Part shown: one piece after another, positions 16,443-41,765 of the stretch
Numbering within the stretch: the stretch's first letter is position 1
Layout of the letters: each line of letters begins with the position of its first letter
Source of the DNA: a virus
Lineage: Duplodnaviria; Heunggongvirae; Uroviricota; Caudoviricetes
Virus record (IMG/VR): IMGVR_UViG_3300008267_000033
Location: 1 to 64,000 of that record
Reading direction: 5' to 3' (one strand)
Length of the DNA: 64,000 nt
Made by a program: the position numbers and the translations under genes
Notes under the pieces: model-generated
Database searches by the model: none
Told to the model about the DNA's origin: nothing
Seen by the model: only the letters and a program-made list of their open reading frames with translations

Positions 16443-16460
16443 GTAGTACTTGAGTATTAC
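16443..16460. promoter_or_regulatory. 18-bp imperfect palindrome GTAGTACTTGAGTATTAC abutting the -35 of the 16413-41 promoter
   Basis: Half-sites GTAGTAC / GTAATAC inverted around TTGA; copies also at 21046-63, 41748-65 and 34360-77. Confidence 0.4.
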
Positions 16461-16461
16461 A

Positions 16462-17010
16462 CTAGTCTGACGCCGAATGAATTTCTATCAAAGGAATATG
16501 GTCGGGATGCTGTATGACGTAATCAATTATTTTAGCAATACTATCTAGTGCTAACCATTTTTCATGTCCAGGTTTGCCATCATTTAGTCCGCCGGCAATT
16601 ATATGTGAAGTTTTAATTCCTTTTTTGTTGTTCAATTGCAGGCTCCGGTCTCGCAATGCTCGCTTTTGTATACTGTATCCACCATAAATGCTATCTATGC
16701 GACCATCATCAACTCCCATCCACTCAGCAGTGCTTCCGATGTTTATAATATGCCCTTTGATATTGTGCTTGGACCAAACATGCCATGTGGTTTCAAGCAA
16801 TGCTAATTGTCCACCATTGCATATAAAACTGCTGTTGATAAAAACATTGTAGTTTTTAATCTTGTTTTGAAAAAAGTCTTCACTGCCCGAATCCCAAAAT
16901 CTCAAATCGTATCCAGTTGCCCTGCTAGCAAATTCTGCCTGAGGAAATTTTCTTTTGATAGCCGAAGCCACAGTAGTATGATCGGGGTTTCCTGTGCAAA
17001 GTATATTCAT
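16462..17010 (-). CDS. hypothetical protein
   Basis: ORF track. Confidence 0.3.
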   Translation of the reverse strand: MNILCTGNPDHTTVASAIKRKFPQAEFASRATGYDLRFWDSGSEDFFQNKIKNYNVFINSSFICNGGQLALLETTWHVWSKHNIKGHIINIGSTAEWMGVDDGRIDSIYGGYSIQKRALRDRSLQLNNKKGIKTSHIIAGGLNDGKPGHEKWLALDSIAKIIDYVIQHPDHIPLIEIHSASD

Positions 17011-18149
17011 GATATAATTTTACTCCATTCGGGGGTTAACGCCTTGAAATCTGTACCTCGTATGTGATTCAATGCAGATATATTTTTCCAAAAATGATCA
17101 TGGGATTGGTCGCTTGTTTTCAAGGATTGCACCAACAGGAGTAATTGGTTGTAGTTTTGAAATTTGCGTTGTAGCGTGGCATGACCCGACTCTGACAGAT
17201 AATCAAGTTCAAAATCACCAACTGCTTTTTGAAAAATTAAATTAGTTGGGTCGCCATATCTGTTTGAAGAAAAATTTTCATTCCACCAATCCCATACTTC
17301 GTTTAAATAAAAAAAGTTAAGATAACTCCATGTACAATTTATATTGAACATATGGTTGTGTGGCATATTAGCATAGAACCAATCCAAGGTAGAGTTGACT
17401 TTGTTCCAGTCTGCTCCAGTGCGTTGGTAATCAAATCGAGCACCAACATCATCAATGCTGAAATACAGTTCAATCAACTGACATTTCTCCCATAATTGTA
17501 AAATTTCATCCGACACTGTTTGCGTAGCATTGGTATTATAAAATACTCTAACATCTGACAGTCCTTTTACTTGTTGAATTTTTTGCAAAAGTCTAACATG
17601 ATTCTCAGACAACAGTGGTTCGCCACCACCATGAAAATGCACATGCTTGATATTTTCCAAAAGAGCCTGGTCAGTTATTTCTAATTGTTCATTTTTTTTG
17701 TATTGAAACGGTGCAATATCATATGTGGGGTGTAATTTTTGATAATCAGGAATCCATTGTGAACTGTTTTGAGGTCCGCATATGACACATTTCAAATTGC
17801 ATAAATTTCCAACACTGTAGTCAATACCTGTTGGCCCAGACAACTCAATGTTGATGTCTTTATGGTATTCTTCGTATAGTTTTTTTGATCCTTGTCGTCG
17901 GCTTTCTATCCCAGCATCTTCGGCACTGTAGCAGGCCTGGCATCCTGGTATAAAGGCATCAGTTTCAACACATTTTTTTAGCTCTAAGTGTTCGGGGCTA
18001 TTCCACACATCAGTCAAATTGAACTCTGATGATGTTTTGATATATCCATTGTAAAAAGAACAAGGATTGTAACCCAGTTCACCGTTGTGAGACCATATGG
18101 CAAGATTTTTATAAATTTCGTAGCAAAAGTATTTTTTATTTTTCATCAC
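17007..18149 (-). CDS. radical SAM protein
   Basis: CNLKCVIC = CxxxCxxC radical SAM cluster motif; 380 aa. Confidence 0.55.
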   Translation of the reverse strand: MMKNKKYFCYEIYKNLAIWSHNGELGYNPCSFYNGYIKTSSEFNLTDVWNSPEHLELKKCVETDAFIPGCQACYSAEDAGIESRRQGSKKLYEEYHKDINIELSGPTGIDYSVGNLCNLKCVICGPQNSSQWIPDYQKLHPTYDIAPFQYKKNEQLEITDQALLENIKHVHFHGGGEPLLSENHVRLLQKIQQVKGLSDVRVFYNTNATQTVSDEILQLWEKCQLIELYFSIDDVGARFDYQRTGADWNKVNSTLDWFYANMPHNHMFNINCTWSYLNFFYLNEVWDWWNENFSSNRYGDPTNLIFQKAVGDFELDYLSESGHATLQRKFQNYNQLLLLVQSLKTSDQSHDHFWKNISALNHIRGTDFKALTPEWSKIIS

Positions 18150-18451
18150 AGGTATTTAAGTATGAACCATGACTGTGAGGTTTCATTGTAGAAGTCCAAA
18201 TGCACTTGATATTCATAGTGGAATCCTGTTGGCGCCGCGCCCCAATGATAACCATCCAACACACCAACAGTTGGACGATTGGGTTCAAGTCCCTGATGGT
18301 CACGTGCAGTAAATCCCAGTTCACGCCGCATGATGTGCCGCATGCGTATGGCAGTGCCAAAATCTTGAGCCAAGCGGTCCAGCACCATGGACCACTCATC
18401 AGGGTTGTGAAAGATGATAAGATTCCGCTTGGTTGTTACCCGATAAGACAT
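18146..18451 (-). CDS. hypothetical protein
   Basis: ORF track. Confidence 0.3.
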   Translation of the reverse strand: MSYRVTTKRNLIIFHNPDEWSMVLDRLAQDFGTAIRMRHIMRRELGFTARDHQGLEPNRPTVGVLDGYHWGAAPTGFHYEYQVHLDFYNETSQSWFILKYL

Positions 18452-18885
18452 TATGCAGTGCCTAAATGTGCCAGTTCAAAGAACATAAGTTCCTTGTCCG
18501 AAGCCACGTAGATTCTATAGTTGCGGTACTCGGTGCTGTAGGCCCACTGTAGATTTAGATCATCTGACTGATGGCTTGAAGGTACTGTATCATTCAGTTG
18601 TTCAGCAATCTCGTTCTGTGTCTTGACATCTGTACTCCAGCCATATGTGCGGTTGAACCAACGTCGGGCTCGATCAAACTCCAGCACACCACTGCTGTAA
18701 TCACCCTTGGGGAATTCAATGGTGTACCGATAGATCTTGCTCCAACTGTTGCGACCATTTAGTTTGACAATTTCGTATTTCATATTAAAAGGGTGGCACA
18801 GCCACAGCCCTGTAAGACTGCACCACCCACCCCCATCAGCTGGCTTGCAAAATGTACTTGCCGTAACGAGCATGGAACTCGTCAA
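18451..18885 (-). CDS. hypothetical protein
   Basis: ORF track. Confidence 0.3.
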   Translation of the reverse strand: MTSSMLVTASTFCKPADGGGWCSLTGLWLCHPFNMKYEIVKLNGRNSWSKIYRYTIEFPKGDYSSGVLEFDRARRWFNRTYGWSTDVKTQNEIAEQLNDTVPSSHQSDDLNLQWAYSTEYRNYRIYVASDKELMFFELAHLGTA

Positions 18886-19927
18886 ACACCTTGATCTTGG
18901 TAGGCTGCATCGGCAACATATAAGTTGTCAGTGCAATACGAGCACCCAACACCACCAGTTCAGTCTCAAAGTTCTTCATCATATATGCCAAAAAGTTATT
19001 GCTCATTTCATGGAACTCTTTGTCTGACACTTTCTTTTGCTCAATGGCGTCTTTGAGTTCGTAGCACATGCTGATGACCAAACTGTACATGGCCGACACT
19101 TCTTTCACATTCAAGTCTGTTACCTTGCCACTCAAGATGTCCGAGGGCTGGGGCATGCGTCCGGACACTTTGCGGTGTGCTTTGAATTTCACAGCAAGGC
19201 CCTCGCCCACAGTACCTGCAATCAGGTTCATTTCTGTGTCCTCGTCACATTCATCCGCCAACAGCTCACTCACAAAACTCCAAGAGCGCGGTGTTGCAAA
19301 TGCACGTGAACTGGACTTGGCATCAAAGTCGTACAAGTCCTGCTTGGCAAAACTCAAGTAACCCACCACGTCTTTGTGGATGTTGTGATTCACAGCCCAC
19401 TCTTGCCATGATGCAAAGTCTACACGCATTTCCTGGTGAACAAAACGATTTGCCAGCGGAGTCGGCATGCGGAAGGTAACACCTTTGTCTGATTCACGAT
19501 TACCTGCTGCCACCATCACCACATTGTCAGGCAGTTTATACTTGCCAATGCGTCGATTCAAAATCAACTGATATGCGGCACTCTGCACTGACGCTGGAGC
19601 TGAGTTCATCTCGTCCAAAAACAGCACCACCACAGGGTACTGGCTGGCAGTTTCTTCATCGGGCATTTCCACAGGGGGAGCCCAATCCATCTTGCCAATG
19701 TCTTTGTTGTAAAACGGAATACCACGAATGTCTGTGGGTTCCATCTGTCCCAGGCGCAAGTCAATCATCAAGCCACCAAGTTCTTCTGTGATGCCAGCCA
19801 CAACTTCGCTCTTGCCGATGCCGGGAGGACCCCACAAAAACATAGGACGCTTTTTCTTAAAAGCATGCATGATGGATTTACGAACTTGGGCACTGGTTAC
19901 TGTACGTGCATCTGATACTGCTGACAT
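18836..19927 (-). CDS. cobS: AAA+ ATPase, CobS/MoxR-like
   Basis: Walker A FLWGPPGIGKSEV; Walker B VVVLFLDEMN; about 360 aa; neighboured by the VWA/CobT-like gene as in phage cobS/cobT pairs. Confidence 0.65.
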   Translation of the reverse strand: MSAVSDARTVTSAQVRKSIMHAFKKKRPMFLWGPPGIGKSEVVAGITEELGGLMIDLRLGQMEPTDIRGIPFYNKDIGKMDWAPPVEMPDEETASQYPVVVLFLDEMNSAPASVQSAAYQLILNRRIGKYKLPDNVVMVAAGNRESDKGVTFRMPTPLANRFVHQEMRVDFASWQEWAVNHNIHKDVVGYLSFAKQDLYDFDAKSSSRAFATPRSWSFVSELLADECDEDTEMNLIAGTVGEGLAVKFKAHRKVSGRMPQPSDILSGKVTDLNVKEVSAMYSLVISMCYELKDAIEQKKVSDKEFHEMSNNFLAYMMKNFETELVVLGARIALTTYMLPMQPTKIKVFDEFHARYGKYILQAS

Positions 19928-20171
19928 GGGCTGTTTCCTTTCGGGGGTTGTAGTAAGTTAAGTCGTTATTGTAGTTGATTGTGAATTTGTTGTCAACATG
20001 CATAGTTGCAGTTTTGCAACAGGTCATCGCGCACAATTTCTGCAATCATCTCTTGTGCTTCGCCTATGCTGAAGCCGTATTCTTGCACAACAAAATCAAT
20101 AACTTGATCTTCAGTGCAGTTGAGGCTGATCATTTCTTGAATGTCAGTGTAAAGTCTGCTCATCTGTCCCA

Positions 20172-20363
20172 TTATAGGTTCTCCTCCATTAATTGGTCAT
20201 CAATTTCACTCAACATGTCGTGCAACAAGCCACTGATCTCATCAAAGTCCACGCACTCGGGTTCAAACAGTCTTCGAAACTCTGTTATCTTTTTAGTCAA
20301 TACTTCAACAGCGTCAACCAGTTCGTCGAATCTGGCTTCAGCCTGTTCTAACTTCTCGCTCAT
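20172..20363 (-). CDS. hypothetical small acidic protein
   Basis: ORF track. Confidence 0.3.
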   Translation of the reverse strand: MSEKLEQAEARFDELVDAVEVLTKKITEFRRLFEPECVDFDEISGLLHDMLSEIDDQLMEENL

Positions 20364-20635
20364 TATGCTGTCTCCCGATCTGTGATGTAAGTGAATAAAA
20401 CAAATTTGGCACGGTTCAGCAGTTGTCGCTGATCTTCTATGGTGTTGAAGTCGGGCTGTTCGTATGCCATCATTTCCTGTGCATCGCTCAGCATACTTGC
20501 CACAACCATTGCAGGTCCTGAAAAACGGAACGTGCTACCGGACTCCACTGCTTCACGCATCTGTGCTTCAGTGCAACCGTACATGCCCACTTCACGGATT
20601 TCTTTAGTTGTCAGTCCTTCAAACGCTTTTCTCAT
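20363..20635 (-). CDS. hypothetical early protein (90 aa)
   Basis: Start set to ATG 20633-20635, preceded by AGGAG and the consensus promoter at 20666-20694; the longer track ORF would begin upstream of the promoter. Confidence 0.4.
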   Translation of the reverse strand: MRKAFEGLTTKEIREVGMYGCTEAQMREAVESGSTFRFSGPAMVVASMLSDAQEMMAYEQPDFNTIEDQRQLLNRAKFVLFTYITDRETA

Positions 20636-20665
20636 CTCAGGCTCCTTTTTGCTTTGTATGCCACT

Positions 20666-20694
20666 ATTATAACAGTTTGGCAATTATTGGTCAA
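20666..20694 (-). promoter_or_regulatory. sigma70-type promoter cassette (TTGACC-17-TATAAT) with conserved 24-nt 5' UTR AGTGGCATACAAAGCAAAAAGGAG
   Basis: -35 at 20689-94, -10 at 20666-71, SD 20642-46, ATG 20633-35. Confidence 0.65.
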
Positions 20695-20702
20695 CCAAAA
20701 TG

Positions 20703-20954
20703 TCAACTGTATTGTGTGGTATCTTCCATCGCCACGGTCAAGCCCAGTTGTTCCAAGACTTCCCACTCAGGTTTTTCACGCCAGGTTTGAATGTATGCCT
20801 CTTTGACGTCGTGGGCCAATGCCCGGGCAAATTTCTTACTCTGCATGATCTTTTGCATCTTGCGGGCGTCAACGATTTCAACGCCTGGCAGATTTTCAAA
20901 CACTGCCTGCAGTTCTTTTTCCGAGAATTCAATGGTCACTGTGATCTTGTTCAT
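20703..20954 (-). CDS. hypothetical early protein
   Basis: ATG 20952-20954 preceded by AGGAG and the consensus promoter at 20985-21013. Confidence 0.4.
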   Translation of the reverse strand: MNKITVTIEFSEKELQAVFENLPGVEIVDARKMQKIMQSKKFARALAHDVKEAYIQTWREKPEWEVLEQLGLTVAMEDTTQYS

Positions 20955-20984
20955 TGCGAGCTCCTTTTTGCTTTGTATGCCATT

Positions 20985-21013
20985 ATTATAGCAAATTGGG
21001 AATTTCCGGTCAA
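20985..21013 (-). promoter_or_regulatory. sigma70-type promoter cassette (CTTGACC-17-TATAAT) with the same conserved 5' UTR
   Basis: -35 at 21008-13, -10 at 20985-90, UTR AATGGCATACAAAGCAAAAAGGAG, ATG 20952-54. Confidence 0.65.
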
Positions 21014-21014
21014 G

Positions 21015-21044
21015 AAAAACCCTGCATCGAGCAGGGTTTTAAAA
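21015..21044. terminator. bidirectional rho-independent terminator
   Basis: AAAAACCCTGC atcgag GCAGGGTTTTAAAA: 7-bp GC stem flanked by A- and T-runs, between the phosphoesterase stop and the next promoter. Confidence 0.6.
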
Positions 21045-21045
21045 G

Positions 21046-21063
21046 GTAGTACTTGAGTATTAC
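21046..21063. promoter_or_regulatory. 18-bp palindrome GTAGTACTTGAGTATTAC (copy 2), upstream of the terminator and promoter unit at 20985-21044
   Basis: Identical to the copy at 16443-60. Confidence 0.4.
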
Positions 21064-21065
21064 TG

Positions 21066-21680
21066 TTAATCCACATGGTGTTCGGTCTTGAAATTGCCGT
21101 TTTTGAATCCAATCTCTCCACCTTCTGCTTGGATGCGCCGGTACACATCATCCAACAATATGGGTGCAAAGTCAGTCTGTTCCACGCACACACAATGGTA
21201 TCGCGGATCGATCTCAGTGCCGTACAATACTTCACCGGTCTTGGCGTTGACACCACGGGCCCGTTTCACACGACTGGCGTGCAAGTGTCCGTGAATGTTG
21301 GTACCAAAGCGACCCAACGAGGCCTCATGCACAGGGATATGACTCAAGATCATTCCGTTCATCACATGGTATGCCCGCAACTCACGAAAGTATTCGCGAT
21401 ACTCCACATCCGGAAAGATATCATGGTTGCCGCGAATCAATACCTTGTCCCCGTTCAAGCGAGCCAAAGTTTTCAACGCACGGCGGTTGATAACCACGTC
21501 ACCCAAATGGTACACTTTGTCAGTGGGCCGGACTCGTGCGTTCCACTTTGCAACCATGTCCTCATCCATCTCCTCGGGAGTGTCGTAAGGACGCAACTTG
21601 GTCACGCCATCGTTGCGAGTGAACTTGCACACACCCATGTGTCCAAAATGTGTGTCACTTACCAAAAACGTTGCTGGCAT
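21066..21680 (-). CDS. calcineurin-like metallophosphoesterase
   Basis: N-terminal FLVSDTHFGH, the DxH(x)nGDxxDR-type metallophosphatase motif; own consensus promoter and SD. Confidence 0.65.
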   Translation of the reverse strand: MPATFLVSDTHFGHMGVCKFTRNDGVTKLRPYDTPEEMDEDMVAKWNARVRPTDKVYHLGDVVINRRALKTLARLNGDKVLIRGNHDIFPDVEYREYFRELRAYHVMNGMILSHIPVHEASLGRFGTNIHGHLHASRVKRARGVNAKTGEVLYGTEIDPRYHCVCVEQTDFAPILLDDVYRRIQAEGGEIGFKNGNFKTEHHVD

Positions 21681-21705
21681 ACGTCACTCCTTTCTTTAAA
21701 GTGTA

Positions 21706-21734
21706 ATTATAACAGATTGGGCATTTCTGGTCAA
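21706..21734 (-). promoter_or_regulatory. sigma70-type promoter (CTTGACC-17-TATAAT) for the metallophosphoesterase gene
   Basis: -35 at 21729-34, -10 at 21706-11, AGGAG SD, ATG 21678-80. Confidence 0.6.
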
Positions 21735-21737
21735 GCA

Positions 21738-22208
21738 CTACTTGGGTACTACTTCCAACCAAGTGTGATCGCCCATGTACTTAACCTGTGCCTGGTACTC
21801 GTAATCCTCAGGTGCACTGCTTGACCAGTCGTCAGGACCATGCGGTGTCAACAAGGTATGTTGCCGGCGCCGGTCCCAGGCCAACCAATACACATTGCCC
21901 ATCACAGGACTGAATTGGTACACTGCCGCATGCACTAGATCTGTAACGGCTAGTCTGCGTCGAATGTCATCTGCTTGCTTTTGCAACACACTCACCAGTT
22001 CCATGATTCGATCATACTCTTGCTGGGCATACATCCTGGCATGATTGATCATGAGATCTTTTTGCTGTGTGACTGGTACTAGATCAAATGCAGGACCCAG
22101 TGTACTGGTGGCGTAGGGTGTGACATTACGGTTGAAGAAGTGCACCAAGGTATTGCCGGTGCTGACATCAAAGCTATCGCGACCCTTGGCGCTATTGCTT
22201 TCATCCAC
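21738..22208 (-). CDS. hypothetical protein (GTG start per ORF track)
   Basis: ORF track. Confidence 0.3.
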   Translation of the reverse strand: MDESNSAKGRDSFDVSTGNTLVHFFNRNVTPYATSTLGPAFDLVPVTQQKDLMINHARMYAQQEYDRIMELVSVLQKQADDIRRRLAVTDLVHAAVYQFSPVMGNVYWLAWDRRRQHTLLTPHGPDDWSSSAPEDYEYQAQVKYMGDHTWLEVVPK

Positions 22209-22210
22209 TG

Positions 22211-22477
22211 TTACAGGGGCTGTTGTTTGTTGCGTCTGCGTGGCTGAACTTCAGTCTCACGATAGATGTAGTCTCGGCCAATTTTACCTGCTTCAATTTC
22301 CAACATAGCTGTGACGCCGGCACTGTGTGCAAATTTAAGTGTGATTTTAGGCATGTCACCGCGACTCAGTTCCCGCATGCGGCGTGCGCCAGCCAGGACC
22401 AAATCGTATCGGTTACCGATCATGGCCACTGCCTGTTCTGAGTTGAGTCCTGCTGTTCTGTCTGCTGGGTGCTTCAT
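22211..22477 (-). CDS. rpoZ: RNA polymerase omega-subunit (RpoZ)-like protein (89 aa)
   Basis: [36 protein letters not shown] aligns with E. coli RpoZ [35 protein letters not shown]; start set to ATG 22475-22477, preceded by GGAAGA. Confidence 0.5.
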   Translation of the reverse strand: [88 protein letters not shown]

Positions 22478-22764
22478 GGTTCTTCCTTGGTTGATAATCC
22501 GTTTGAATGCTTGGCTGTTTGTTGTTCCAAGTCTTGGAACAGGCGCTTTTCTTGTTGGGTCAGTCTGTCCTTGTGTGTCTTGCGTGGATTGCCACACATG
22601 AAACATCGTGGTTGACCACAGTCCATGGCATGACGCTTGGCAAACTTATGCGGCTGACCAATGTTTGAACCAGCGGCTCGGGCAATTTTAACTTGTCTAG
22701 ACACAGCCACATCAGTTTTGTGTCGGCGTCGGCTGTTGACAAATCGGGCTAGGTCGTTGCTCAT
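22474..22764 (-). CDS. small basic protein with CxxxxCxxC motif
   Basis: ORF track; CGQPRCFMCGNPRKTH; ATGA overlap with neighbouring genes. Confidence 0.3.
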   Translation of the reverse strand: MSNDLARFVNSRRRHKTDVAVSRQVKIARAAGSNIGQPHKFAKRHAMDCGQPRCFMCGNPRKTHKDRLTQQEKRLFQDLEQQTAKHSNGLSTKEEP

Positions 22765-22925
22765 CCGCCGCGTCCCACTGTGCGTTGCACAGGTCTACCT
22801 GCAATGGCGGGAGTGCCAGATCGCTTGGTTTTGCCTGATTTGATTTTGGCATCAGGATGAGCAGCCGCATGTTTTTTGGCCAATGCGTCTCGAAGTGTAT
22901 CAGTCAATTTTTTAGGTTTAGTCAT
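22761..22925 (-). CDS. small Lys/Arg-rich basic protein (54 aa)
   Basis: Start set to ATG 22923-22925 (MTKPKKLTD...), downstream of the sigma70-like promoter at 22951-22979; the track ORF starts at TTG inside the -35 box. Confidence 0.35.
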   Translation of the reverse strand: MTKPKKLTDTLRDALAKKHAAAHPDAKIKSGKTKRSGTPAIAGRPVQRTVGRGG

Positions 22926-22950
22926 ACTGTTATTTACGTCCTTGGTGTAC

Positions 22951-22979
22951 AGTATAACAAAGAATCCATTGAGTGTCAA
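22951..22979 (-). promoter_or_regulatory. sigma70-type promoter (TTGACA-17-TATACT) for the small basic protein / RpoZ-like operon
   Basis: -35 at 22974-79, -10 at 22951-56, immediately downstream of the terminator hairpin at 22987-23008. Confidence 0.5.
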
Positions 22980-22982
22980 GAG

Positions 22983-23008
22983 AAAAGGGCCGACGGCCCT
23001 TTTGGTTT
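22983..23008. terminator. rho-independent terminator (bidirectional)
   Basis: GAAAAGGGCC gac GGCCCTTTTGGTTT. Confidence 0.5.
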
Positions 23009-23219
23009 AATGCTTTTGCAAATTAGCGTGTCATAAAATACATGGTAATTTCAAAACCATAACGCATATCTTGCGCGGCTGGTGTAGTCCATTTCATAGT
23101 AATCTCCTTTGGTTAAACATACTGTTGTATGTATGACTATTATACTACACAATCCATCAAGAACATATCCTGATAATCATGATTTTGTGTAAGTGGAACT
23201 CACTAAGTATTTACACTAG

Positions 23220-23657
23220 TTACTGTGTTTCTTTATGTGCAGCCAAGGCCTTGACAAAGCGGTTGGCGTGACTACGTTCTGCTTTGGCCAGTGTTTCAAA
23301 CCAATCAGCAATTTCGTCGTGGCCTTCATCACGTGCAGTTTTGGCCATGCCTGGATACATGTCAGTGTATTCATGTGTTTCACCGTGGATAGCACTTTCC
23401 AATGCTTGGGTAACAGTCCGGGCAGTCATTCCTGTACCAGGATCACCTGAACCACCGTCGATCAGGTATTCCATGTGACCATGTGCATGTCCAGTTTCGC
23501 CTTCGGCAGTGCTACGGAACAAGGCAGCAACATCGTTGTCTCCGGCCACGTCAGCCATGTTTGCAAAGTACAAGTACCGTCGGTTGGCCTGTGATTCACC
23601 GGCAAATGCTTCTTTTAAATTCAATTCAGTTCGGGTTCCTTTTACGGATTGTGTCAT
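23220..23657 (-). CDS. rubrerythrin/ferritin-like diiron protein
   Basis: [23 protein letters not shown] matches the rubrerythrin N-terminal helix; GGAGG SD. Confidence 0.55.
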
Positions 23658-23760
23658 GGGTTCCTCCTATTAGTGACATCACTAGTATATAGTATATCTA
23701 TGGCGCTGGTCTATGGATTTTGCCATTGTATTTTTTAATGGCAGTGTTTGACATTATCTA

Positions 23761-23789: not shown

Positions 23790-23791
23790 GT

Positions 23792-34325: not shown

Positions 34326-34353
34326 GAAAAACCCGCCTAGATAGCGGGTTTTT
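34326..34353. terminator. bidirectional rho-independent terminator
   Basis: AAAAACCCGC ctagata GCGGGTTTTTG; ends the minus-strand small gene and the putative plus-strand sRNA. Confidence 0.6.
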
Positions 34354-34359: not shown

Positions 34360-34377
34360 GTAGTACTTTTGTATTAG
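34360..34377. promoter_or_regulatory. palindrome variant GTAGTACTTTTGTATTAG upstream of a TG-extended -10 (GTGTATAAT at 34416-24) inside a CCTCAC..GTGAGG hairpin
   Basis: Motif follows the terminator at 34326-53; possible plus-strand promoter, antisense to the small gene 34533..34724. Confidence 0.3.
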
Positions 34378-34724: not shown

Positions 34725-34780
34725 GGTGTCTCCTCAAATGTGTAGTATATATTAGTGTTGCCAGTGGGTCAACACTTTTA

Positions 34781-35365
34781 TCAAATCACTTGGGCAATAC
34801 GAGCCAAGATGATTTCAACCACTTGATTGCTGATCACAACTTCATAGTGGTTCAGCGGAAGTTCTACCAATTCAAAATCTGTGCGATATTGTTGGCTTTC
34901 TATTGTGACCACACCGTCATTGGGTTCTTGTATCCAGGGACTGGCTCCGCGTGTGGTCACAACCTGTGTCCAACATGGTGGTGCAGGCAACTTTTTGGCC
35001 GCAGCCATGGGATGACTTGCAGGACCAATGTCTTTCATCAGCCGGTTAAACGGCAGGAAGTAACGTGCATAATCTGCTTGTTTGCTGCCACCATAAGGTG
35101 TGCTCAAGCTCACACCGCCCACAGTGGTCGCACTGTAGTGGTTGGCCAGGTGCAGGGCATAGATACCGCCCAGGCTGTGACTGACGAAGAACAGTCGATC
35201 CTGATCATCCAGTTGGCCCTTCATTTCTGCCAGGTTGTGATCAAATCCTGCTTCGCTGTTGTATTCCAGGGCTAGGTCGGGCTCTTCTGTGTGATCCCGC
35301 ACAAACTGTCTGATGTGTGTGAAACTTTCTGCTGTGGCTGATGCCCCGTGTATGTAAACTATCAT
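34781..35365 (-). CDS. alpha/beta hydrolase (lipase/esterase-like)
   Basis: GxSxG nucleophile elbow VSHSLGG; 194 aa. Confidence 0.5.
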   Translation of the reverse strand: MIVYIHGASATAESFTHIRQFVRDHTEEPDLALEYNSEAGFDHNLAEMKGQLDDQDRLFFVSHSLGGIYALHLANHYSATTVGGVSLSTPYGGSKQADYARYFLPFNRLMKDIGPASHPMAAAKKLPAPPCWTQVVTTRGASPWIQEPNDGVVTIESQQYRTDFELVELPLNHYEVVISNQVVEIILARIAQVI

Positions 35366-35377
35366 TTGAATATTTAT

Positions 35378-35405
35378 TGTAGAGAAACCCGCCGAAGCGG
35401 GTTCT
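35378..35405. other. GC hairpin with GNRA-like loop (CCCGC cgaa GCGGG), possible terminator or attenuator upstream of the hydrolase gene
   Basis: AGAGAAACCCGCCGAAGCGGGTTCTGAGTTTCTGTT. Confidence 0.3.
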
Positions 35406-35701
35406 GAGTTTCTGTTACGAGGTATGTCTTACCCTAGGCAGTGTTTAGGCTGCCAAAGCGAACTGTTCGTCGTTTGCATTTACGGTTTTTGCTTGATTAA
35501 CGGTCATCGCCTACCGTGCTGTCCACTCTGTTACTTGTTGCCCTGTCGAAACTATGCACCCCCATCAAAAGAATTATTGACTAACATTCCCCCCATACTT
35601 CATTTCTGGTGCGGCTAATGCAAAAACTCTTTTGGTGGAGGTGGGGGGATTTGCACCCCCGTCCAGAACACTTTTCTCTCGGCTTCATACAACAATAACT
35701 A

Positions 35702-36316
35702 CTATTTAATCAAATGTGGCCATAAGTTGCCATATTCATCCAATGGTTCAGGTTTAAACCTGATGCTTGCGGCTACTCTCAATTGGGTGTGATGAGTTTC
35801 TGGGCGATGTAAAATATTGACATTGATCCAATGAGGAATATTAGAATCACATCGTCCAATTTCTACTGCTGTACGAGGATCCACAACTCTAGCTATTTCA
35901 ACAATAGAAGTACCAATAACATAGTCTGGTAAACTTTGATCTTTGATCTTGCCATCATACCACACAGTGTAGGTGTCTTCACAGTTGATCAGTGGAATGT
36001 TCAGTGCAATATCCACACCTACATCCACATGCGGAGGAAATTCACGAGTGCTTTCAACAGAGATAAACGTTATTACAAAAAAATTGTTGTATATACCCAG
36101 TCGTTGGAACTCTTGCATCAGAGTAGTACAAGTGTTGTGCATGAGTACTTTGTAGCTGATTTCCACAGCGGTGCTGGTATATGGAACCAGTGTGTCTTTC
36201 TTGGTTTGAATAAACAACTTCAATAATTCTTTTTGTATTGCAGGTAATAATTCTGGATTTAGGCTGGGCTCATGATACAGCCAATCAGGAGTGGTATTTC
36301 GATATTTGTAAACCAT
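35702..36316 (-). CDS. cupin / 2OG-oxygenase-like protein, paralog 2
   Basis: PPHVDVG (HxD) plus ETHH His motif; start set to ATG 36314-36316 (MVYKYRN), 7 nt after the stop of the upstream gene; the long N-terminal extension in the ORF track overlaps that gene. Confidence 0.35.
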   Translation of the reverse strand: MVYKYRNTTPDWLYHEPSLNPELLPAIQKELLKLFIQTKKDTLVPYTSTAVEISYKVLMHNTCTTLMQEFQRLGIYNNFFVITFISVESTREFPPHVDVGVDIALNIPLINCEDTYTVWYDGKIKDQSLPDYVIGTSIVEIARVVDPRTAVEIGRCDSNIPHWINVNILHRPETHHTQLRVAASIRFKPEPLDEYGNLWPHLIK

Positions 36317-36323
36317 ATGGTAT

Positions 36324-36818
36324 TTATACGCTGTTGGGCTCGTCGGCCACACGCCATGACAACAGTGCCAAATCTGCGGCAATTTCGTCGGTGACTGTGC
36401 CTTCACTGACGAAATTTCGTGAGCCGTCAGTGTCTCCGTTGCCCAGGCCATCACCAATGCCTGAACAGTACCAGTCCATGTAGTCGCCACCCTTGTCTTG
36501 CAGGTCAGCCACAATACCACCTGCACTACGCCAGGTGCATGACCAATAGACGTCTTTGAGTATGAGCCAAACATCTTGTTTTTGGAAACTGTTGTTGCAC
36601 AAGGCAGCATACAGGTTCTGTGCATAGGTGTCACTGCCACGCACTTTGCTCAAGAACCAGTCGGCCTGGCTCATGTCGTATTCCATGTTGTTGATCCGGT
36701 ACTCAGGAGTCTGCCTGCGTTCAGCTTCCAACTTGACCCACTTGCCACGGATGTCATCAAAGAAGTCATCATCAGTGCCTTCGCTTGCATGTTGTGGTTC
36801 TATTGTGATGTCGTTCAT
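36324..36818 (-). CDS. hypothetical acidic protein
   Basis: Start set to ATG 36816-36818 (MNDITIEP), preceded by AAAGGAA; avoids overlap with tRNA-Leu(TAA). Confidence 0.35.
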   Translation of the reverse strand: MNDITIEPQHASEGTDDDFFDDIRGKWVKLEAERRQTPEYRINNMEYDMSQADWFLSKVRGSDTYAQNLYAALCNNSFQKQDVWLILKDVYWSCTWRSAGGIVADLQDKGGDYMDWYCSGIGDGLGNGDTDGSRNFVSEGTVTDEIAADLALLSWRVADEPNSV

Positions 36819-36829
36819 GTCAGTTCCTT

Positions 36830-36913
36830 TGGTACGAGTAACCGGAGTCGAACCGGTACGCATTCAGCGGCGGATTTTAAGTCCGCTGGGTCTACCTATT
36901 CCCCCATACTCGC
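36830..36913 (-). tRNA. tRNA-Leu (anticodon TAA), type II
   Basis: 84 nt; anticodon stem GCGGA/TCCGC with loop CTTAAAA; long variable arm CGCTGAATGCG; ACCGGTTCGACTCCGGT; CCA. Confidence 0.65.
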
Positions 36914-36927
36914 ATGTTTGTATTTAC

Positions 36928-37002
36928 TGGTCCGGCGTACAGGAATCGAACCCATATTCGCGGAGTAGAAATCCGCTGTATTATCCATTATACTAACGCC
37001 AG
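36928..37002 (-). tRNA. tRNA-Arg (anticodon TCT)
   Basis: D-arm GTATAATGGATAATAC; anticodon stem GCGGA/TCCGC with loop TTTCTAC; CCA. Confidence 0.6.
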
Positions 37003-37005
37003 TGT

Positions 37006-37080
37006 TGGTGCCCACAGAGGGAATTGAACCCCCACTCAAGCGATTATGAGTCGCCTGCTTTACCATTAAGCTATGTGGGC
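37006..37080 (-). tRNA. tRNA-Met/Ile2 (anticodon CAT), third CAT tRNA in the array
   Basis: Acceptor GCCCACA/TGTGGGC; anticodon stem GGCGA/TCGCT with loop CTCATAA; GGGGGTTCAATTCCCTC; CCA. Confidence 0.65.
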
Positions 37081-37103
37081 TGATGTATATTGTAACAGGA
37101 ATT

Positions 37104-39158
37104 TTATTTATTGTCAAGCGACACTGTTGGTCTGGTCCAGACATCTGTGTGAACCCACTTGAAATCAAAATCTAATGATTGGCCTTGACCATGATGGTTG
37201 GCAGCTGGATTGTGATCATAAGTTTCGGCTTGTAAACTGATATCAAAATCTGCGTTCCATACCCCATCTGCATTAATTTCAAAATTGTAAACAGCACGGA
37301 ATTCAAATTTTGTTCCTGATGAACAATTATCAGGATATTTTGGATATCGTCTTGTGCCAAATTCTTTGAGATCTCGATCTGGATCAAACTCCACTCTAAA
37401 CCGGTAGGCACCCATGGCCAACCAGAACACCCGCAACAAAGGCCAAATTTCGTTGATCAAACTATTGGCCATGGGATTGATGTTCACTTTGATGATCTCG
37501 TAGTCAAAGTCTTTTTCCCAAGGAATTGAATCTGCCCAATTTGCAGGGTCTGACTCAATCTGATATTGATTTTTTAAGTCAGGTTCTTGACAGTGCGGTT
37601 GATAACGCCTTTTGGTGCCGTGCAATCTAAATTGTTCCAGCAGTATATTGGTAAGTTTGAATCTGACAAATCTGTGAAACACAGTGTTGCGCAGATCCTG
37701 TGTGGCCCATCCGTGAGTCCAGTCAATTCGTCTCACACCAAATCGTTCGCGTTCTAGATCCAAGGGTGTGTTGTGTCCCAGTCCGCAGGTGCCGGCACTT
37801 TGTGCGCCCATGCCTGAGTTACGCAGCCGCCACATCAAGGTTTGTGTTTGTGCCACGTCAGTCAATTCTTCGCCTGGAAATCCTGTGAACCAAGTAGCAA
37901 ACTGATTGCAAAAATCAATCTCAGCCATGTCGTTAAAATTTTGTTCGATCCATTCCACTCGACAATTTTTTTTCATCAAGTCCAGCACATTCTGTGATCC
38001 AGATTCCACACCAAAAGCAAACCCTGTGGCTCCTGATCGTTTTAACAGTGCCCAAAAGTCTCGGTCCATTTTACCATCAATTCGACTGTAGCCACTCCAA
38101 CTGATACATATTTGTCTTTCCATCAGTCCTTCAGCAAACCCTCTCAACTCACGAAGATTTCCATTCAGCAAACTGTCTATGAATGTGACACTTTGTATGT
38201 GTTGATTGCGATAGGCAATTTCAATTTCCTTCAACACACGAGATCCTTGACGGGCACGATATTTCCAAAACACTGTTTCATTGCAATACACACAGTTGGC
38301 AATGCACCCTCGGCTGAATTCGCTGGTTATGCCGTAAGATTCATATAACGAGATATCAAAATCACTGTAGTCAGCTGGGGGCATGCTGTCTAGATCTATA
38401 CGTGCATCTTTGCTTTGAGTTAAAAATTTTGGCAATTCTTCAGTGGGATTTTCTATGTTTTCCAGCACCTGCAACCACAACATTTCACCTTCGCCAGACA
38501 CATAATGATCAATTGCAGGGTTGTCGGCTCGGCTACCGCCAGGGCTAACGCCGCTGTTGTTGTTCATTTGTGTGATATTGGGACCGCCAATGATGATTTT
38601 TAAATCAGGTGATCGGCGTTTGAATTGTTCAATCATCCACATGACACATGCATCGTTGGTGTACCAACAACTGAATCCCAATACTGTGGGCTGCCAAGAC
38701 AAGATTTCATCTAAGTATGGCGTCAACATTGGCTCAAGCATGGGGTGCAATATCTTGCTGTAATGAGGATCTTGCCATTTCCAATCTTCATAACTGCTCC
38801 AATACGGCAGCAACTCCGGGCCTGCTTGTTTTTTACACACAGCATTGATATCCCATGTTTTGGTAGCAAACCCTGCATGCTTGCTCAGTGCTGCCATTCT
38901 AGCAATGCCATATGGTGGCGAAACAGTACTCCATTCGGGCATGACAATCAGTGCCACACGATTTGATCTAATTGTTTCGTAATGTATTACAACTTCAGTG
39001 AGATTTTTTTGTTTGCGACTTTCAGTTGGACTTTTTTGTGCGGCCACAAACATTTCAGAAAGTTTCACATGTGTGTCATTGCCGACCGCGACTGGAGACA
39101 CAGTTGGATACTGTGTTGTTTGAATGGGTATTATTTTTTTTGAATCGATAACTGACAT
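37104..39158 (-). CDS. B12-binding-domain radical SAM (class B) protein
   Basis: N-terminal Rossmann-like B12-binding region followed by FSRGCIANCVYC (CxxxCxxC); 684 aa. Confidence 0.6.
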   Translation of the reverse strand: MSVIDSKKIIPIQTTQYPTVSPVAVGNDTHVKLSEMFVAAQKSPTESRKQKNLTEVVIHYETIRSNRVALIVMPEWSTVSPPYGIARMAALSKHAGFATKTWDINAVCKKQAGPELLPYWSSYEDWKWQDPHYSKILHPMLEPMLTPYLDEILSWQPTVLGFSCWYTNDACVMWMIEQFKRRSPDLKIIIGGPNITQMNNNSGVSPGGSRADNPAIDHYVSGEGEMLWLQVLENIENPTEELPKFLTQSKDARIDLDSMPPADYSDFDISLYESYGITSEFSRGCIANCVYCNETVFWKYRARQGSRVLKEIEIAYRNQHIQSVTFIDSLLNGNLRELRGFAEGLMERQICISWSGYSRIDGKMDRDFWALLKRSGATGFAFGVESGSQNVLDLMKKNCRVEWIEQNFNDMAEIDFCNQFATWFTGFPGEELTDVAQTQTLMWRLRNSGMGAQSAGTCGLGHNTPLDLERERFGVRRIDWTHGWATQDLRNTVFHRFVRFKLTNILLEQFRLHGTKRRYQPHCQEPDLKNQYQIESDPANWADSIPWEKDFDYEIIKVNINPMANSLINEIWPLLRVFWLAMGAYRFRVEFDPDRDLKEFGTRRYPKYPDNCSSGTKFEFRAVYNFEINADGVWNADFDISLQAETYDHNPAANHHGQGQSLDFDFKWVHTDVWTRPTVSLDNK

Positions 39159-39358
39159 TGTCAGTTACTTATGCACAGTCAGTTTAGGAGTTTGTTGATA
39201 GCGTCTATGGCCATTTTTGCCAGATCTAAATCAATGCCCATTCTGTGTGCTATTTCTGCGGTGCTGAGATTGCGTTCCAACAGTTCGCGCACCTGGTTTA
39301 CGAGTTCTCGTTTCATGTACTATATATAACGTCTTAGCCCTGGCTAGATCAATTTTGC

Positions 39359-39625
39359 CTAACTGAACAACACCCATGTCCATGCTTTGACAAACAGCCA
39401 GATTGCGCCCAAGTACATCAACCCTATTGCAAGGCCAATCAGATCAAACGGTTCCGTCTTGGGGTTGTTAACGTGTCGCACCACAGCCGCACCCATGTGC
39501 AGGTCTTTTGCAATCAACACCATCAATGGCGCTACAACTTCGGGCACGGGTGCATGAAACTCTGCCATCATTTCGTCTGTAAAATCGGGCATGTCAAAGT
39601 CATCATCAACAGGTGTGGTGGCCAT
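39359..39625 (-). CDS. small membrane protein
   Basis: ORF track; hydrophobic C-terminus. Confidence 0.3.
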   Translation of the reverse strand: MATTPVDDDFDMPDFTDEMMAEFHAPVPEVVAPLMVLIAKDLHMGAAVVRHVNNPKTEPFDLIGLAIGLMYLGAIWLFVKAWTWVLFS

Positions 39626-39849
39626 TATTCTAGTCCCAGTGTGGCAGGTGAGTGATCTAAACTATCACGACCATCCTCGCTATAAAAAAACGCATCCGGA
39701 TCTGTGATTCTGATGCTCAAATCACTGTGCATCAAATCATAGTCCACAAAGTCATGATTGGCATCGTACACACGGAAATAATATTCTCCGTCGATACCGC
39801 GTATCAAACATCCTTCAACGCCTGTGGCACTTTTTGCAGTAGTCATCAT
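39625..39849 (-). CDS. hypothetical small protein
   Basis: ORF track; ATGA overlap. Confidence 0.3.
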   Translation of the reverse strand: MMTTAKSATGVEGCLIRGIDGEYYFRVYDANHDFVDYDLMHSDLSIRITDPDAFFYSEDGRDSLDHSPATLGLE

Positions 39850-40134
39850 TTACTCCCAGGTTCTGTGACGTTCAGCCACCCATTCACGGCCGTCATATTC
39901 CTCAACGTACCAATTGACATCATCGGGAACACTTACAATCTTCAATTCAGCATACTCACCGTTAGCGTCAGAGCTCATGAGTTCAACTATTGAAATCAAG
40001 TGCTCATCGTCTCTTGGAATGCGGCGGCTGTGAAAATCAAGATCTGTTATGCCGGCCAGTTCCCGGTATTTATTCTCGGCCGCGGCACTGAGCCCAAAAC
40101 CACCGTGGCAAGTGTTGATCACAACCTTGGTCAT
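39850..40134 (-). CDS. hypothetical small protein
   Basis: ORF track. Confidence 0.3.
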   Translation of the reverse strand: MTKVVINTCHGGFGLSAAAENKYRELAGITDLDFHSRRIPRDDEHLISIVELMSSDANGEYAELKIVSVPDDVNWYVEEYDGREWVAERHRTWE

Positions 40135-40622
40135 AGTTCATCCTCATACCAGTCAACAGCATCAGTTTCAATTACGACATGTCCAAACTGGAGTTGTCCG
40201 CCTTGTGAGCCAGTCACAAATGGCTCGGCAAACTCTTGAATAGCACCCAAGTCCAAGAATTGATCAAAATTGTCAACGTACTTTATATCGTCTAATCGAA
40301 TACAACCGATACTTCCTGCGTCTACACTGTATGCATGACCGTGTTGATCATGATAGGTGCCGTCACCGTAGGCAGTGCTGTAGATGGCAAACCTGCGTCC
40401 ATCGGGCAGTTCAAATTCGCCGTCAAGAATCCGTGGCTCTTTTATGATGATGTTGCAAATTTCACGCCACTCTTCATCGGCCATGACATAGCACAAATCA
40501 CCAATGTAGTATTTTCCGGCGGGCATCATGTTAGTATGTCTCCTTGATGATGTCAAACTGTTCAGCAGGCCATTGGGCCTTGAACTCGTCTGTTTTGACG
40601 TAGGCATTGTAGTCCGTGGCAT
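40131..40622 (-). CDS. hypothetical protein
   Basis: ORF track. Confidence 0.3.
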   Translation of the reverse strand: MPRTTMPTSKQTSSRPNGLLNSLTSSRRHTNMMPAGKYYIGDLCYVMADEEWREICNIIIKEPRILDGEFELPDGRRFAIYSTAYGDGTYHDQHGHAYSVDAGSIGCIRLDDIKYVDNFDQFLDLGAIQEFAEPFVTGSQGGQLQFGHVVIETDAVDWYEDEL

Positions 40623-40703
40623 TGAAAAACACCTTGCGAAACACTGCCGTGTGCTTGCCCTTTTCAGTGATTGTGAGATAAACTGATTTTGCTTTGCCTG
40701 CCA

Positions 40704-40916
40704 TTATGCTGTCTCCCGATCAAATTTACGTTCAACATCTGCCCACAGGGCAGGGTTCATCATGTCTGTATGGTATGCACAAATTTCTTCGGCATCCTCA
40801 AGCACCGAGCACCGGTCTACTGTGGTGCCAGCATACACACCTTCAACTGTTTCGGACCAACGAACCACGTCCCAACGTTCGGCTTTGTCATGCCATTCAA
40901 CTGTGAATCTCATCAT
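40704..40916 (-). CDS. hypothetical small acidic protein
   Basis: ORF track. Confidence 0.3.
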   Translation of the reverse strand: MMRFTVEWHDKAERWDVVRWSETVEGVYAGTTVDRCSVLEDAEEICAYHTDMMNPALWADVERKFDRETA

Positions 40917-41284
40917 GCAGCCTTTCTAAAATAACCGTAGGGCAAGCCCTGGGTGAAACAAAAATAGTCGGCGTCGCCATTGGCGTGTTCAGCATCCATG
41001 AGCCAGGCAATCACACGCTCACGGTCGGCGCCTGTGTGCATGAGACTAGTAACACGATCTTCAAACTTCACAACAGCGTCGGCTTCAGCTGTCTTGCGGT
41101 CAGCCTCTTCACGCTGGATCACAGCACCAAGGCTGGCAAACTCTATTTCAAAGTCTGCAAAGGTCCAGCTGGAGGTGTCAACACCACGGGGACGATGGCC
41201 GTAAGCGTCCTTGTACATGTCCCAATAGGTGCATTGGGCTTGCTCAAGATCTGTCATGTCTTCCCAAGATTTCAACTGTTCCAT
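40913..41284 (-). CDS. hypothetical early protein
   Basis: ATG 41282-41284 preceded by AGGAG and the consensus promoter at 41315-41343. Confidence 0.35.
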   Translation of the reverse strand: MEQLKSWEDMTDLEQAQCTYWDMYKDAYGHRPRGVDTSSWTFADFEIEFASLGAVIQREEADRKTAEADAVVKFEDRVTSLMHTGADRERVIAWLMDAEHANGDADYFCFTQGLPYGYFRKAA

Positions 41285-41314
41285 TGCTGACTCCTTTTTG
41301 CTTTGTATGCCACT

Positions 41315-41343
41315 ATTATAGCAGTTTGTGAATTATTGTGCAA
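41315..41343 (-). promoter_or_regulatory. sigma70-type promoter cassette (TTGCAC-17-TATAAT) with the conserved 5' UTR AGTGGCATACAAAGCAAAAAGGAG
   Basis: -35 at 41338-43, -10 at 41315-20, SD 41291-95, ATG 41282-84. Confidence 0.6.
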
Positions 41344-41665
41344 CCGATTTAACACGCACATCAGTGTTGAGTGAAGGTGTGTACTTTTGTATTAACTCGC
41401 GCTCTAACTTGTGTGCAACATCTTTGCCACGCACAATGTCCACGATTGCATAGTTTACAGCGGCTTCGCCTGCGGCACGAATTGCTTCGTACAGGTTCCA
41501 GCTCTTGTCTTCTGTGCGGGCGCGGTAGATGTGCTTGTTAACACGGCTACGAATAGACATGTTGATTGTGCGCTGAGTTTTAGCGGTAATACCAATGTAG
41601 TACTCCAATCCAATTTGGATTGTGTACACAATGTGGGTTCGATCAGTACGTTTCTTTCTTATCAT
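41333..41665 (-). CDS. GIY-YIG nuclease (standalone catalytic domain)
   Basis: IVYTIQ...YYIGIT GIY-YIG motif with downstream Arg/Glu/Asn; -10 box only 6 nt from the ATG (leaderless). Confidence 0.6.
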
Positions 41666-41671
41666 GTGTGT

Positions 41672-41700
41672 ATTATAGCATTTCGGGCATATTCGGTCAA
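41672..41700 (-). promoter_or_regulatory. sigma70-type promoter (TTGACC-17-TATAAT) giving a leaderless GIY-YIG mRNA
   Basis: -35 at 41695-700, -10 at 41672-77; only ACACAC between the -10 and the ATG at 41663-65. Confidence 0.55.
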
Positions 41701-41747
41701 CCGAACGGTTGTACTACAAAAGTACTACTTTTTGGGTTTCACACCCG

Positions 41748-41765
41748 GTAATACTTGAGTACTAT
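41748..41765. promoter_or_regulatory. palindrome variant GTAATACTTGAGTACTAT directly upstream of the plus-strand GT10-like gene (ATG 41776)
   Basis: Overlaps TATAAGTAT, reminiscent of a T4-type late promoter TATAAATA. Confidence 0.35.

Follow-up and report, generated by a model that had tools for sequence, protein, structure and literature searches.

An 18-bp palindrome beside early promoters of an uncultured jumbo phage as a candidate operator

A 64,000-nt stretch of DNA from a virus of the Caudoviricetes (positions 1 to 64,000 of IMG/VR virus record IMGVR_UViG_3300008267_000033; the window) was analysed for an 18-bp palindrome, GTARTACNNNNGTAYTAC (GTARTAC-N4-GTAYTAC), which recurs there between the end of one gene and the early promoter of the next. 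The window belongs to a novel jumbo phage of an uncultured clade. The motif has the anatomy of a dyad, exceeds chance expectation, is linked to promoters, is conserved over hundreds of related phage contigs and shows no RNA-structure constraint. From this pattern in the DNA it is judged somewhat probable that the motif is a double-stranded DNA operator for a putative dimeric regulator acting on the adjacent sigma-70-type early promoter.

Recurrence, promoter link and conservation of the palindrome

The window was searched with GTARTACNNNNGTAYTAC at up to two mismatches, and 100 dinucleotide shuffles served as control. Eight matches were found against 0.19 +/- 0.42 expected, and 0 of the 100 shuffles reached eight. 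Six are intergenic and start at 16443, 21046, 21735, 34360, 41711 and 41748 (copies 1 to 6). The preliminary description of this DNA had listed near-identical copies at 16443-16460, 21046-21063 and 41748-41765 and a variant at 34360-34377, all four of which were recovered at those positions; the looser copy that it placed at 21741 exists, its true position being 21735-21752 (GCACTACTTGGGTACTAC), and a good copy at 41711-41728 had been overlooked. Copies 1 and 2 are identical (GTAGTACTTGAGTATTAC) and copy 4 reads GTAGTACTTTTGTATTAG. The two remaining matches were rejected: 41586-41603 is spelled by the codons for E-YYIGIT inside a GIY-YIG gene, a coincidence, and the string is lost in homologues that use other codons, so that it has no DNA-level conservation; the match at 48372 (two mismatches, within a gene) is attributed to chance.

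Strict matches to TTGACN-N16-18-TANAAT numbered 11 in the window, all on the minus strand, and an independent consensus scan concurred. Read from right to left, the motif lies upstream of the −35 box, abutting it, 10 bp off or beyond an intrinsic terminator. The placement first proposed, immediately upstream of a −35 box or before a gene start, is correct in this direction of reading; the promoters are on the minus strand, however, and a terminator intervenes at 21046 and 34360. For a sample blind to the motif, 80 orthologous loci were collected for each of three window genes that adjoin a copy (DUF2201, metallophosphoesterase and GIY-YIG). The metallophosphoesterase loci gave 124 distinct upstream/downstream junctions, 56 with a sigma-70-like promoter and 68 without, and the motif was present at 19 of the 56 and at 0 of the 68 (Fisher p = 3.7e-8, which, like all p-values given here, is optimistic because the sites are related by descent). 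The preliminary description had made its proposal depend on a positional association with promoters; this association was seen here and again among the strict promoters of the DUF2201 and metallophosphoesterase loci, where the motif stands beside 44 of 253 distinct sequences (17%). Motif-bearing promoters form the subclass with the best consensus, with a TG extended −10 in 91% (51% of the rest) and a TTGACC −35 box in 84% (45% of the rest). As the promoter is kept in nearly all DUF2201 loci and the motif in a subset only, the motif is an optional add-on. Its distance to the −35 box clusters at 0-1, 9-11, 21, 30-35 and 39-47 bp, the first two of these being peaks; a spacing of 30-35 bp may mean no more than that a terminator of ordinary length stands between. 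Over-representation, a non-coding position and a tie to promoters, as looked for in an operator, were all found.

The exact 18-mer was present at 102 IMG/VR loci, on contigs of up to 374 kb. The layout shared by these loci is gene end, A-run, motif (GTAATACTCAAGTACTAC in sense orientation), variable linker and TTGACC-N17-TATAAT, the linker being nothing, a T-run, or an A-run, GC-rich terminator and T-run. A scan with positions 4, 9, 10 and 15 left free returned at least 120 loci, many of them variants in the same context, together with chance matches in unrelated phages. In 596 Gb of bacterial and archaeal genomes the 4-fold degenerate motif had 34 matches against about 70 expected by chance (a rough estimate), and several of the 34 are phage contigs misbinned into metagenome-assembled genomes (MAGs); a host repeat or host regulon was rejected, as the exact motif is not enriched in these cellular genomes. 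Being rare in cells and recurrent in IMG/VR, the motif therefore characterises a large uncultured phage clade; it is not a repeat of the host. A text search of the literature for the motif sequence returned no relevant paper, and nothing relevant was found on early-promoter palindromes of jumbo phages. The motif is previously undescribed; an operator-like repeated dyad is otherwise ordinary in phage regulatory cassettes, and a specialist would not be greatly surprised by it. It is notable for its exact conservation over a large uncultured clade.

The anatomy of the site was read from 89 de-replicated promoter-linked sites and, separately, from 49 sites of a scan that introduced no bias at the free positions. 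The consensus as refined from them is aaaaa-GTARTACT-nn-AGTAYTAC-ttttt, and motif plus flanks give a 28-bp site, aaaaaGTAATACTCAAGTACTACttttt. The arm bases G1 T2 A3 T5 A6 C7 T8 and A11 G12 T13 A14 T16 A17 C18 are 83-100% fixed, whereas the central dinucleotide is free (CA 12, TT 9, TG 7, AA 7, others), position 4 takes either A or G, and C or T predominates at position 15. The half-sites, GTAnTAC, are small palindromes in themselves, the symmetry reaches inward to GTARTACT-nn-AGTAYTAC, and the half-site centres at positions 4 and 15 lie 11 bp apart, as in the dyad of a dimer operator. Positions 4 and 15, which would pair in a hypothetical hairpin, are Watson-Crick partners in 23 of the 49 sites against 17.7 expected from base frequencies, and one-sided changes in the arms are uncompensated; base identity, not base pairing, is what is kept, as in an operator. 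The commonest form (GTAATACTCAAGTACTAC, sense strand) folds at −0.5 kcal/mol in sense RNA and −4.4 in antisense, and the real terminators that adjoin it at −12 to −15. Rho-independent termination by the motif was rejected for want of a stable GC hairpin with a U-run (sense fold −0.5 kcal/mol; a T-run at roughly 60% of sites, with none in the abutting class), and a reading as RNA hairpin or terminator was likewise rejected in view of the folding energies together with the lack of a pairing constraint. A scan of the window with Rfam 15 at gathering thresholds gave transfer RNAs (tRNAs) and a transfer-messenger RNA (tmRNA) only, with no family at any copy. Fixed identity with free pairing and a free centre fits a dimeric protein that reads two major grooves 11 bp apart and is the opposite of what a hairpin needs.

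Proposed operator and alternative readings

In the favoured model the dyad would be an optional module on the outer side of a compact cassette for early-gene regulation, with the order upstream gene stop, motif, optional intrinsic terminator, TTGACC-N17-(TG)nTATAAT, conserved leader and gene. One subunit would occupy each GTARTACT half-site, the 11 bp between centres placing both on a single helix face, and the bound dimer would act on host sigma-70 RNA polymerase at the neighbouring promoter. We infer that a protein binds the motif, that it does so as a dimer and that it is probably of phage origin. Activation would be less likely than negative or temporal control, whether as early shut-off or as insulation from read-through, since motif-bearing promoters are of near-perfect consensus and copy 6 overlaps a candidate −10 box, where direct occlusion would be possible. 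The inverted half-sites had earlier been taken to imply a dimeric regulator; the dyad is genuine, non-coding, tied to promoters and conserved in the manner of double-stranded DNA, but no binding protein was found.

Several observations weigh against the operator. A terminator hairpin stands between motif and promoter in about one-third of sites, which is odd for a promoter regulator, and transcription of a motif beyond the terminator therefore makes it part of the upstream mRNA, at its 3' end. The flanks, A in about 50% on the 5' side and T in about 60% on the 3' side, resemble the A-run and T-run of a bidirectional terminator. The promoter-distal half is mostly GTAATAC and the proximal half more variable; in promoter orientation the asymmetric form is biased (A..C 14 versus G..T 2), and a manual count of 24 de-replicated sites gave 22 with the exact 18-mer in the same direction, whereas a perfectly symmetric dimer site predicts no bias. 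Helical phasing of the distances gave a Rayleigh peak at 10.5-10.7 bp (p ~2e-7), which falls to ~1e-3 without the abutting class and is rivalled by 7.75 bp, and the common descent of the sites, noted above, bears on this value as well. The phasing is suggestive, though too fragile to be counted as evidence. To these is added the search for the binder, which covered the window of about 64 kb, related contigs reaching 200-370 kb. Pfam searches of 84 small open reading frames (ORFs) of the window gave no recognisable DNA-binding domain at E <= 0.01, and those of the ten commonest gene families downstream of motif-bearing promoters no informative match. When all 131 candidate ORFs of the window were searched, the best 25 of the 45 families listed included no DNA-binding one; these scans of the window also gave no protein like TrpR or GntR, and PHROGs gave no binder among genes neighbouring the motif. 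The best result was a marginal match to HTH_38 (E = 0.013) in a 58-aa protein from related loci. ORF 22761-22925, put forward in the preliminary description as a small basic DNA-binding-like protein, is indeed basic (54 aa, isoelectric point 11.5), but is of low complexity and has no family match below E = 0.05.

Very little is known of how uncultured jumbo phages regulate their genes, and the motif is exactly searchable and present at about one-sixth of strong early promoters. It could serve as bait for the first regulator of the clade (by pull-down, electrophoretic mobility shift assay or DNA affinity purification sequencing) and as an annotation marker for early-gene cassettes and mosaic breakpoints. 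If the binder were host-encoded or linked to GIY-YIG proteins, regulation would be joined to host sensing or to modular genome shuffling.

The far-side placement relative to terminators, the A-run and T-run flanks and the orientation bias keep three other readings alive, the first of which concerns module boundaries. In the motif-blind comparison, three unrelated upstream genes precede the same DUF2201 promoter (in the window, in L103, and in L104, L107 and L108), and the outer edge of the motif is the exact point at which homology among these sequences sets in. The motif thus moves together with the promoter module that it precedes and is the mark of a recombination boundary. End-points of high-scoring segment pairs in loci selected by the motif were set aside as circular and the motif-blind comparison alone was used; for the GIY-YIG promoter module an ungapped profile of conservation gave no information, since close relatives conserve the module as a whole. 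On either side of the conserved metallophosphoesterase gene the sequence is extremely mosaic, and several relatives have the stop codon of this gene within the motif itself (ATG-TAA-TAC...). The GIY-YIG-like protein (41333-41665, minus strand; 110 aa, catalytic domain only; PHROG homing-endonuclease families at E ~1e-5) is encoded next to copies 5 and 6, and among its orthologues (motif-blind loci L405-L484) the motif was present in 43 of 58 distinct upstream contexts, at least six of which are unrelated on reading of the listing.

From these data a recombination signal or mosaic boundary without a regulatory role of its own could be proposed, in which microhomology, or a nuclease or recombinase target (e.g. 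of the small GIY-YIG protein), would drive cassette shuffling; for recombination at the promoter-early stem-loop (PeSL) cassettes of T4-type phages there is published precedent (PMC2839356, PMC4122927). We consider this improbable. If gene conversion alone were at work, the cassette would be made uniform throughout; instead, terminators and linkers differ, the dyad is fixed and its non-contact positions vary. A 110-aa protein consisting of a catalytic domain only is unlikely to read 14 bp alone, most copies of the motif lie away from GIY-YIG genes, and the breakpoints in motif-selected loci are partly an artefact of selection.

A weak bidirectional intrinsic terminator or attenuator, formed by a 7-bp AU-rich hairpin with A-run and T-run flanks and thus an AT-rich equivalent of the T4-type PeSL stem-loop, would account for the constant position of the motif at gene ends, for the base composition of its flanks and for the 8-11 bp class, in which the motif runs straight into a T-run and other terminators are absent; the folding energies of the antisense and perfect variants are −4.4 to −6.7 kcal/mol. 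This reading is nevertheless unlikely: the commonest form carries an A.C mismatch in sense RNA (−0.5 kcal/mol), 41 of the 89 sites are weaker than −1 kcal/mol in sense, and only about half of the sites pair Watson-Crick at positions 4 and 15, with no excess over chance. The stem is fixed and the loop varies, the reverse of what a hairpin needs; the abutting class has no T-run, and sites of the 30-35 bp class have a strong terminator 4-9 nt further on, which would make the hairpin redundant.

Little probability is also given to a signal acting in one orientation on elongation, either as a stoperator-like protein roadblock or as a site at which a factor is loaded onto RNA polymerase or RNA before the terminator (antitermination or RNA processing). 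The asymmetric form is biased in orientation relative to transcription, the motif follows the stop codon and is usually 5' of the terminator, hence transcribed, and stoperators show that many intergenic repressor sites can act on elongation (PMC9283540). The motif was found at none of the 68 promoter-less junctions, however, and moves with the downstream promoter and not with the upstream gene; a palindrome is unexpected for recognition of single-stranded RNA or of the non-template strand, and stoperators are asymmetric and bound by a monomer (PMC9283540).

A T4-type late promoter (TATAAATA-like) overlapping the palindrome at 41757-41765, as also suggested in the preliminary description, is very unlikely: copy 6 does read ...GTACTATAAGTA, 8 nt ahead of an ATG, at a junction conserved in about 10 orthologous loci, but TATAAGTA occurs in copy 6 only among the copies and three times in the 64 kb, TATAAATA occurs four times against 1.6 expected (not significant), the conservation of the junction is inseparable from orthology of the downstream gene, and a simple scan gives the weak sigma-70-like TTCACA-16-TACTAT there instead.

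The operator reading can be extended, though doubtfully, to one word that would serve as operator, module boundary and homing site of a phage system (e.g. the GIY-YIG protein or a recruiting regulator), or that would be a copied host betaproteobacterial operator. The first form would make the motif a dual regulator and reshuffler, the target of a mobile free-standing GIY-YIG endonuclease or its recruiter across an uncultured jumbo phage clade. The second would tie early gene expression to host physiology, the lead being a perfect copy in a divergent promoter region of Burkholderiales/Limnohabitans. This copy, GTAATACTTGAGTATTAC, is found at L201 7285-7302 and L212 2288-2305 (a Burkholderiales MAG and a Limnohabitans MAG, plausible relatives of the host), 12 nt upstream of the ATG of an alpha/beta-hydrolase gene and divergent from a TolC/ABC/HlyD type I secretion operon. 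As evidence of a host regulon it was rejected, being one orthologous locus within rough chance expectation, with a hydrolase unrelated to the phage genes; by its position, a protein of like kind might use it as an operator in the host, though at one locus. The GIY-YIG gene with its promoter sits behind at least six unrelated upstream sequences among orthologues of 84-98% identity and, from this distribution, looks like a mobile free-standing endonuclease cassette. Eight Heimdallarchaeota MAG contigs (L183, L187, L189, L196, L203, L209, L211 and L214) also share GTAATACTTGAGTATTAC, in a common, conserved, non-coding-looking context (...ggtgtattcattacgtattacat...gtgaaaaa...), and this element appears unrelated to the phage motif.

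Arrangement of the copies and genome setting

Copy 1 (16443-16460, minus strand, sense GTAATACTCAAGTACTAC) begins 1 nt past the stop of gene 16462-17010 and ends 1 nt ahead of the −35 box of the promoter at 16413-16441 (minus strand; early consensus TTGACC-17-TATAAT with TG extended −10), which serves the DUF2201/VWA gene 15085-16410. Copy 2 (21046-21063, minus strand, the same letters) lies 2 nt past the stop of the metallophosphoesterase gene 21066-21680; it is followed on the same strand by a GC-rich intrinsic terminator at 21015-21040 (A5-CCCTGC...GCAGGG-T4, −15.1 kcal/mol) and by the consensus early promoter (TTGACC-17-TATAAT, 20985-21013) of an 83-aa gene (20703-20954). The degenerate copy 3 (21735-21752; GTAGTACCCAAGTAGTGC on the minus strand) overlaps the stop codon of gene 21738-22208 and abuts, at a distance of 0, the −35 box of the consensus early promoter (21706-21734, minus strand) of the metallophosphoesterase gene. 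Copy 4 (34360-34377; CTAATACAAAAGTACTAC on the minus strand), whose start overlaps by eye the stop codon of an ORF of about 33 codons, is followed on that strand by a terminator (34327-34353) and then a weak promoter (34316-34288). Copy 5 (41711-41728; GTAGTACTTTTGTAGTAC on the minus strand), a variant found in most orthologous loci, is 10 bp upstream of the −35 box of the consensus early promoter (41672-41700, minus strand) of the GIY-YIG-like gene. Copy 6 (41748-41765; GTAATACTTGAGTACTAT on the plus strand) stands 10 nt ahead of the ATG (41776) of a divergent 351-aa gene and, within the weak plus-strand promoter candidate TTCACA-16-TACTAT at 41738-41765, overlaps both spacer and −10 box.

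Tandem doublets of the motif are common in L333, L114, L139, L012, L026, L060 and L405, with a gap of 7-10 bp and a period of about 25-28 bp; in the window, 19 bp separate the pair at 41711 and 41748. The doublets suggest cooperative or multi-dimer binding at some junctions. A second recurrent palindrome, GTTGCA-(A/T-rich 4-6)-(T)RCAAC, was seen between gene ends and early promoters in L038, L048, L275, L276, L277, L280 and L293, sometimes beside the main motif in related loci; its window copy at about 20005-20020 (minus strand) is upstream of the promoter at 19996, and a search of the window for GTTGYA-N6-RCAAC, with the spacer fixed at 6 nt, gave no enrichment. In a family of small genes (window 18146-18451, minus strand; also L007, L074, L119 and L125-L127) with the C-terminus ...SWF(Q/I)LKYL(N), the last codons in relatives, CTCAAGTACTTGAAT, mimic the motif core and are often directly followed by the true motif; this mimicry may be accidental, or the motif may have evolved from such codons. 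Downstream of the promoters at 21013 and 20694 (window 20955-20984 and 20636-20665) stands a near-identical leader, GGCATACAAAGCAAAAAGGAG, which also precedes gene 40913-41284, and related leaders recur in dozens of IMG/VR loci; judged by these shared letters, entire units of promoter and leader occur in duplicate, both inside single genomes and from one genome to another.

An 8-kb megablast query had no nucleotide match in 50,697 phage records; there is thus no sequenced close relative and no annotation is transferable. The DUF2201/VWA protein (15085-16410; the sole protein searched) is 35-46% identical to proteins of PA5oct, Atu_ph07, Rak2-like and other giant phages. The window contains 30 tRNA genes and a tmRNA (tag ANDEQFALAA) between 26758 and 37080, all on the minus strand. 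As the tmRNA matches the betaproteobacterial model RF01850 (138.6 bits), a betaproteobacterial host is suggested by tmRNA type; the environment is probably freshwater, to judge solely by the MAG names Limnohabitans, Aquiluna and Haliscomenobacter. ORF 22211-22606 (minus strand, starting probably at an internal ATG) encodes an RNA polymerase Rpb6/omega domain (PF01192, E = 3.4e-8), and its segment ...AVAMIGNRYDLVLAGARRMRE... presumably resembles bacterial RpoZ; an omega-like subunit in the early region could bear on how the phage handles host RNA polymerase. Pfam matches over the window ORFs taken together include GTP cyclohydrolase I, 6-pyruvoyl-tetrahydropterin synthase and three radical-SAM proteins, a set that we take to recall phage 7-deazaguanine (queuosine/archaeosine-type) DNA modification pathways. 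ThyX, rubrerythrin, a Bax1-I family protein and many sugar-nucleotide and aminotransferase genes are also encoded.

Comparison with known systems

Operators of dimeric helix-turn-helix (HTH) proteins (lambda, P22 and 434 cI-Cro) are dyads of 17-18 bp with half-sites of about 7-8 bp one helical turn apart and an uncontacted, variable centre. Whereas classical operators of this kind overlap the core promoter, five of the six window copies are upstream of the −35 box or beyond a terminator. In the C1 system of phage P1 many operators are dispersed over the genome; those operators are asymmetric. The E. coli trp operator, which we take to read GTACTAGTTAACTAGTAC, is presumably also an 18-bp GTA/TAC dyad, with 12 of 14 constrained positions coinciding with the motif, and the GT-N3-AC boxes of the GntR family presumably resemble it as well. 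The CTAG core read by TrpR is replaced by RTAC in the motif, unlike in the trp operator, and the resemblance is offered as a lead and not as a claim of membership.

The stoperators of cluster A mycobacteriophages (L5 gp71 type) are asymmetric sites of 13-14 bp, bound by the monomeric immunity repressor of a temperate phage and effective independently of promoters (PMC9283540). Like these, the motif has many short copies in intergenic regions near gene ends, with a preferred orientation. It was rejected as a stoperator because it is a dyad, was found at 0 of 68 promoter-less junctions and has only a partial orientation bias; unlike in the temperate phages that bear stoperators, no repressor gene or lysogeny module was seen here.

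There is a likeness to the PeSL cassettes of T4-type phages, mobile regulatory units composed of a stem-loop terminator with a consensus early promoter (Arbiol et al. 2010, PMC2839356; Comeau et al. 2014, PMC4122927). As in those, a compact cassette here joins a terminator stem-loop, a consensus sigma-70 early promoter and a Shine-Dalgarno sequence and is repeated among small early genes; the short intergenic unit of upstream terminator and promoter is present at 21015-21040 with 20985-21013 and, with the weak promoter, at 34327-34353, and in most related loci. Shared too are conserved leaders and a position at the boundaries of exchanged gene modules. A dyad of 18 bp with fixed sequence is absent from the PeSL description (GC-rich stem-loop, AT-rich region and promoter): here it is an extra, optional module (17% of strict promoters), in which sequence and not pairing is conserved. 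The phage itself, unlike PeSL-bearing phages, is apparently no close relative of T4, having 35-46% identity in one protein to the jumbo phages PA5oct, Atu_ph07 and the Rak2-like group. On this comparison the composite cassette is PeSL-like, and the motif provides a test case for whether cassettes of the PeSL type can hold an additional, sequence-specific control module.

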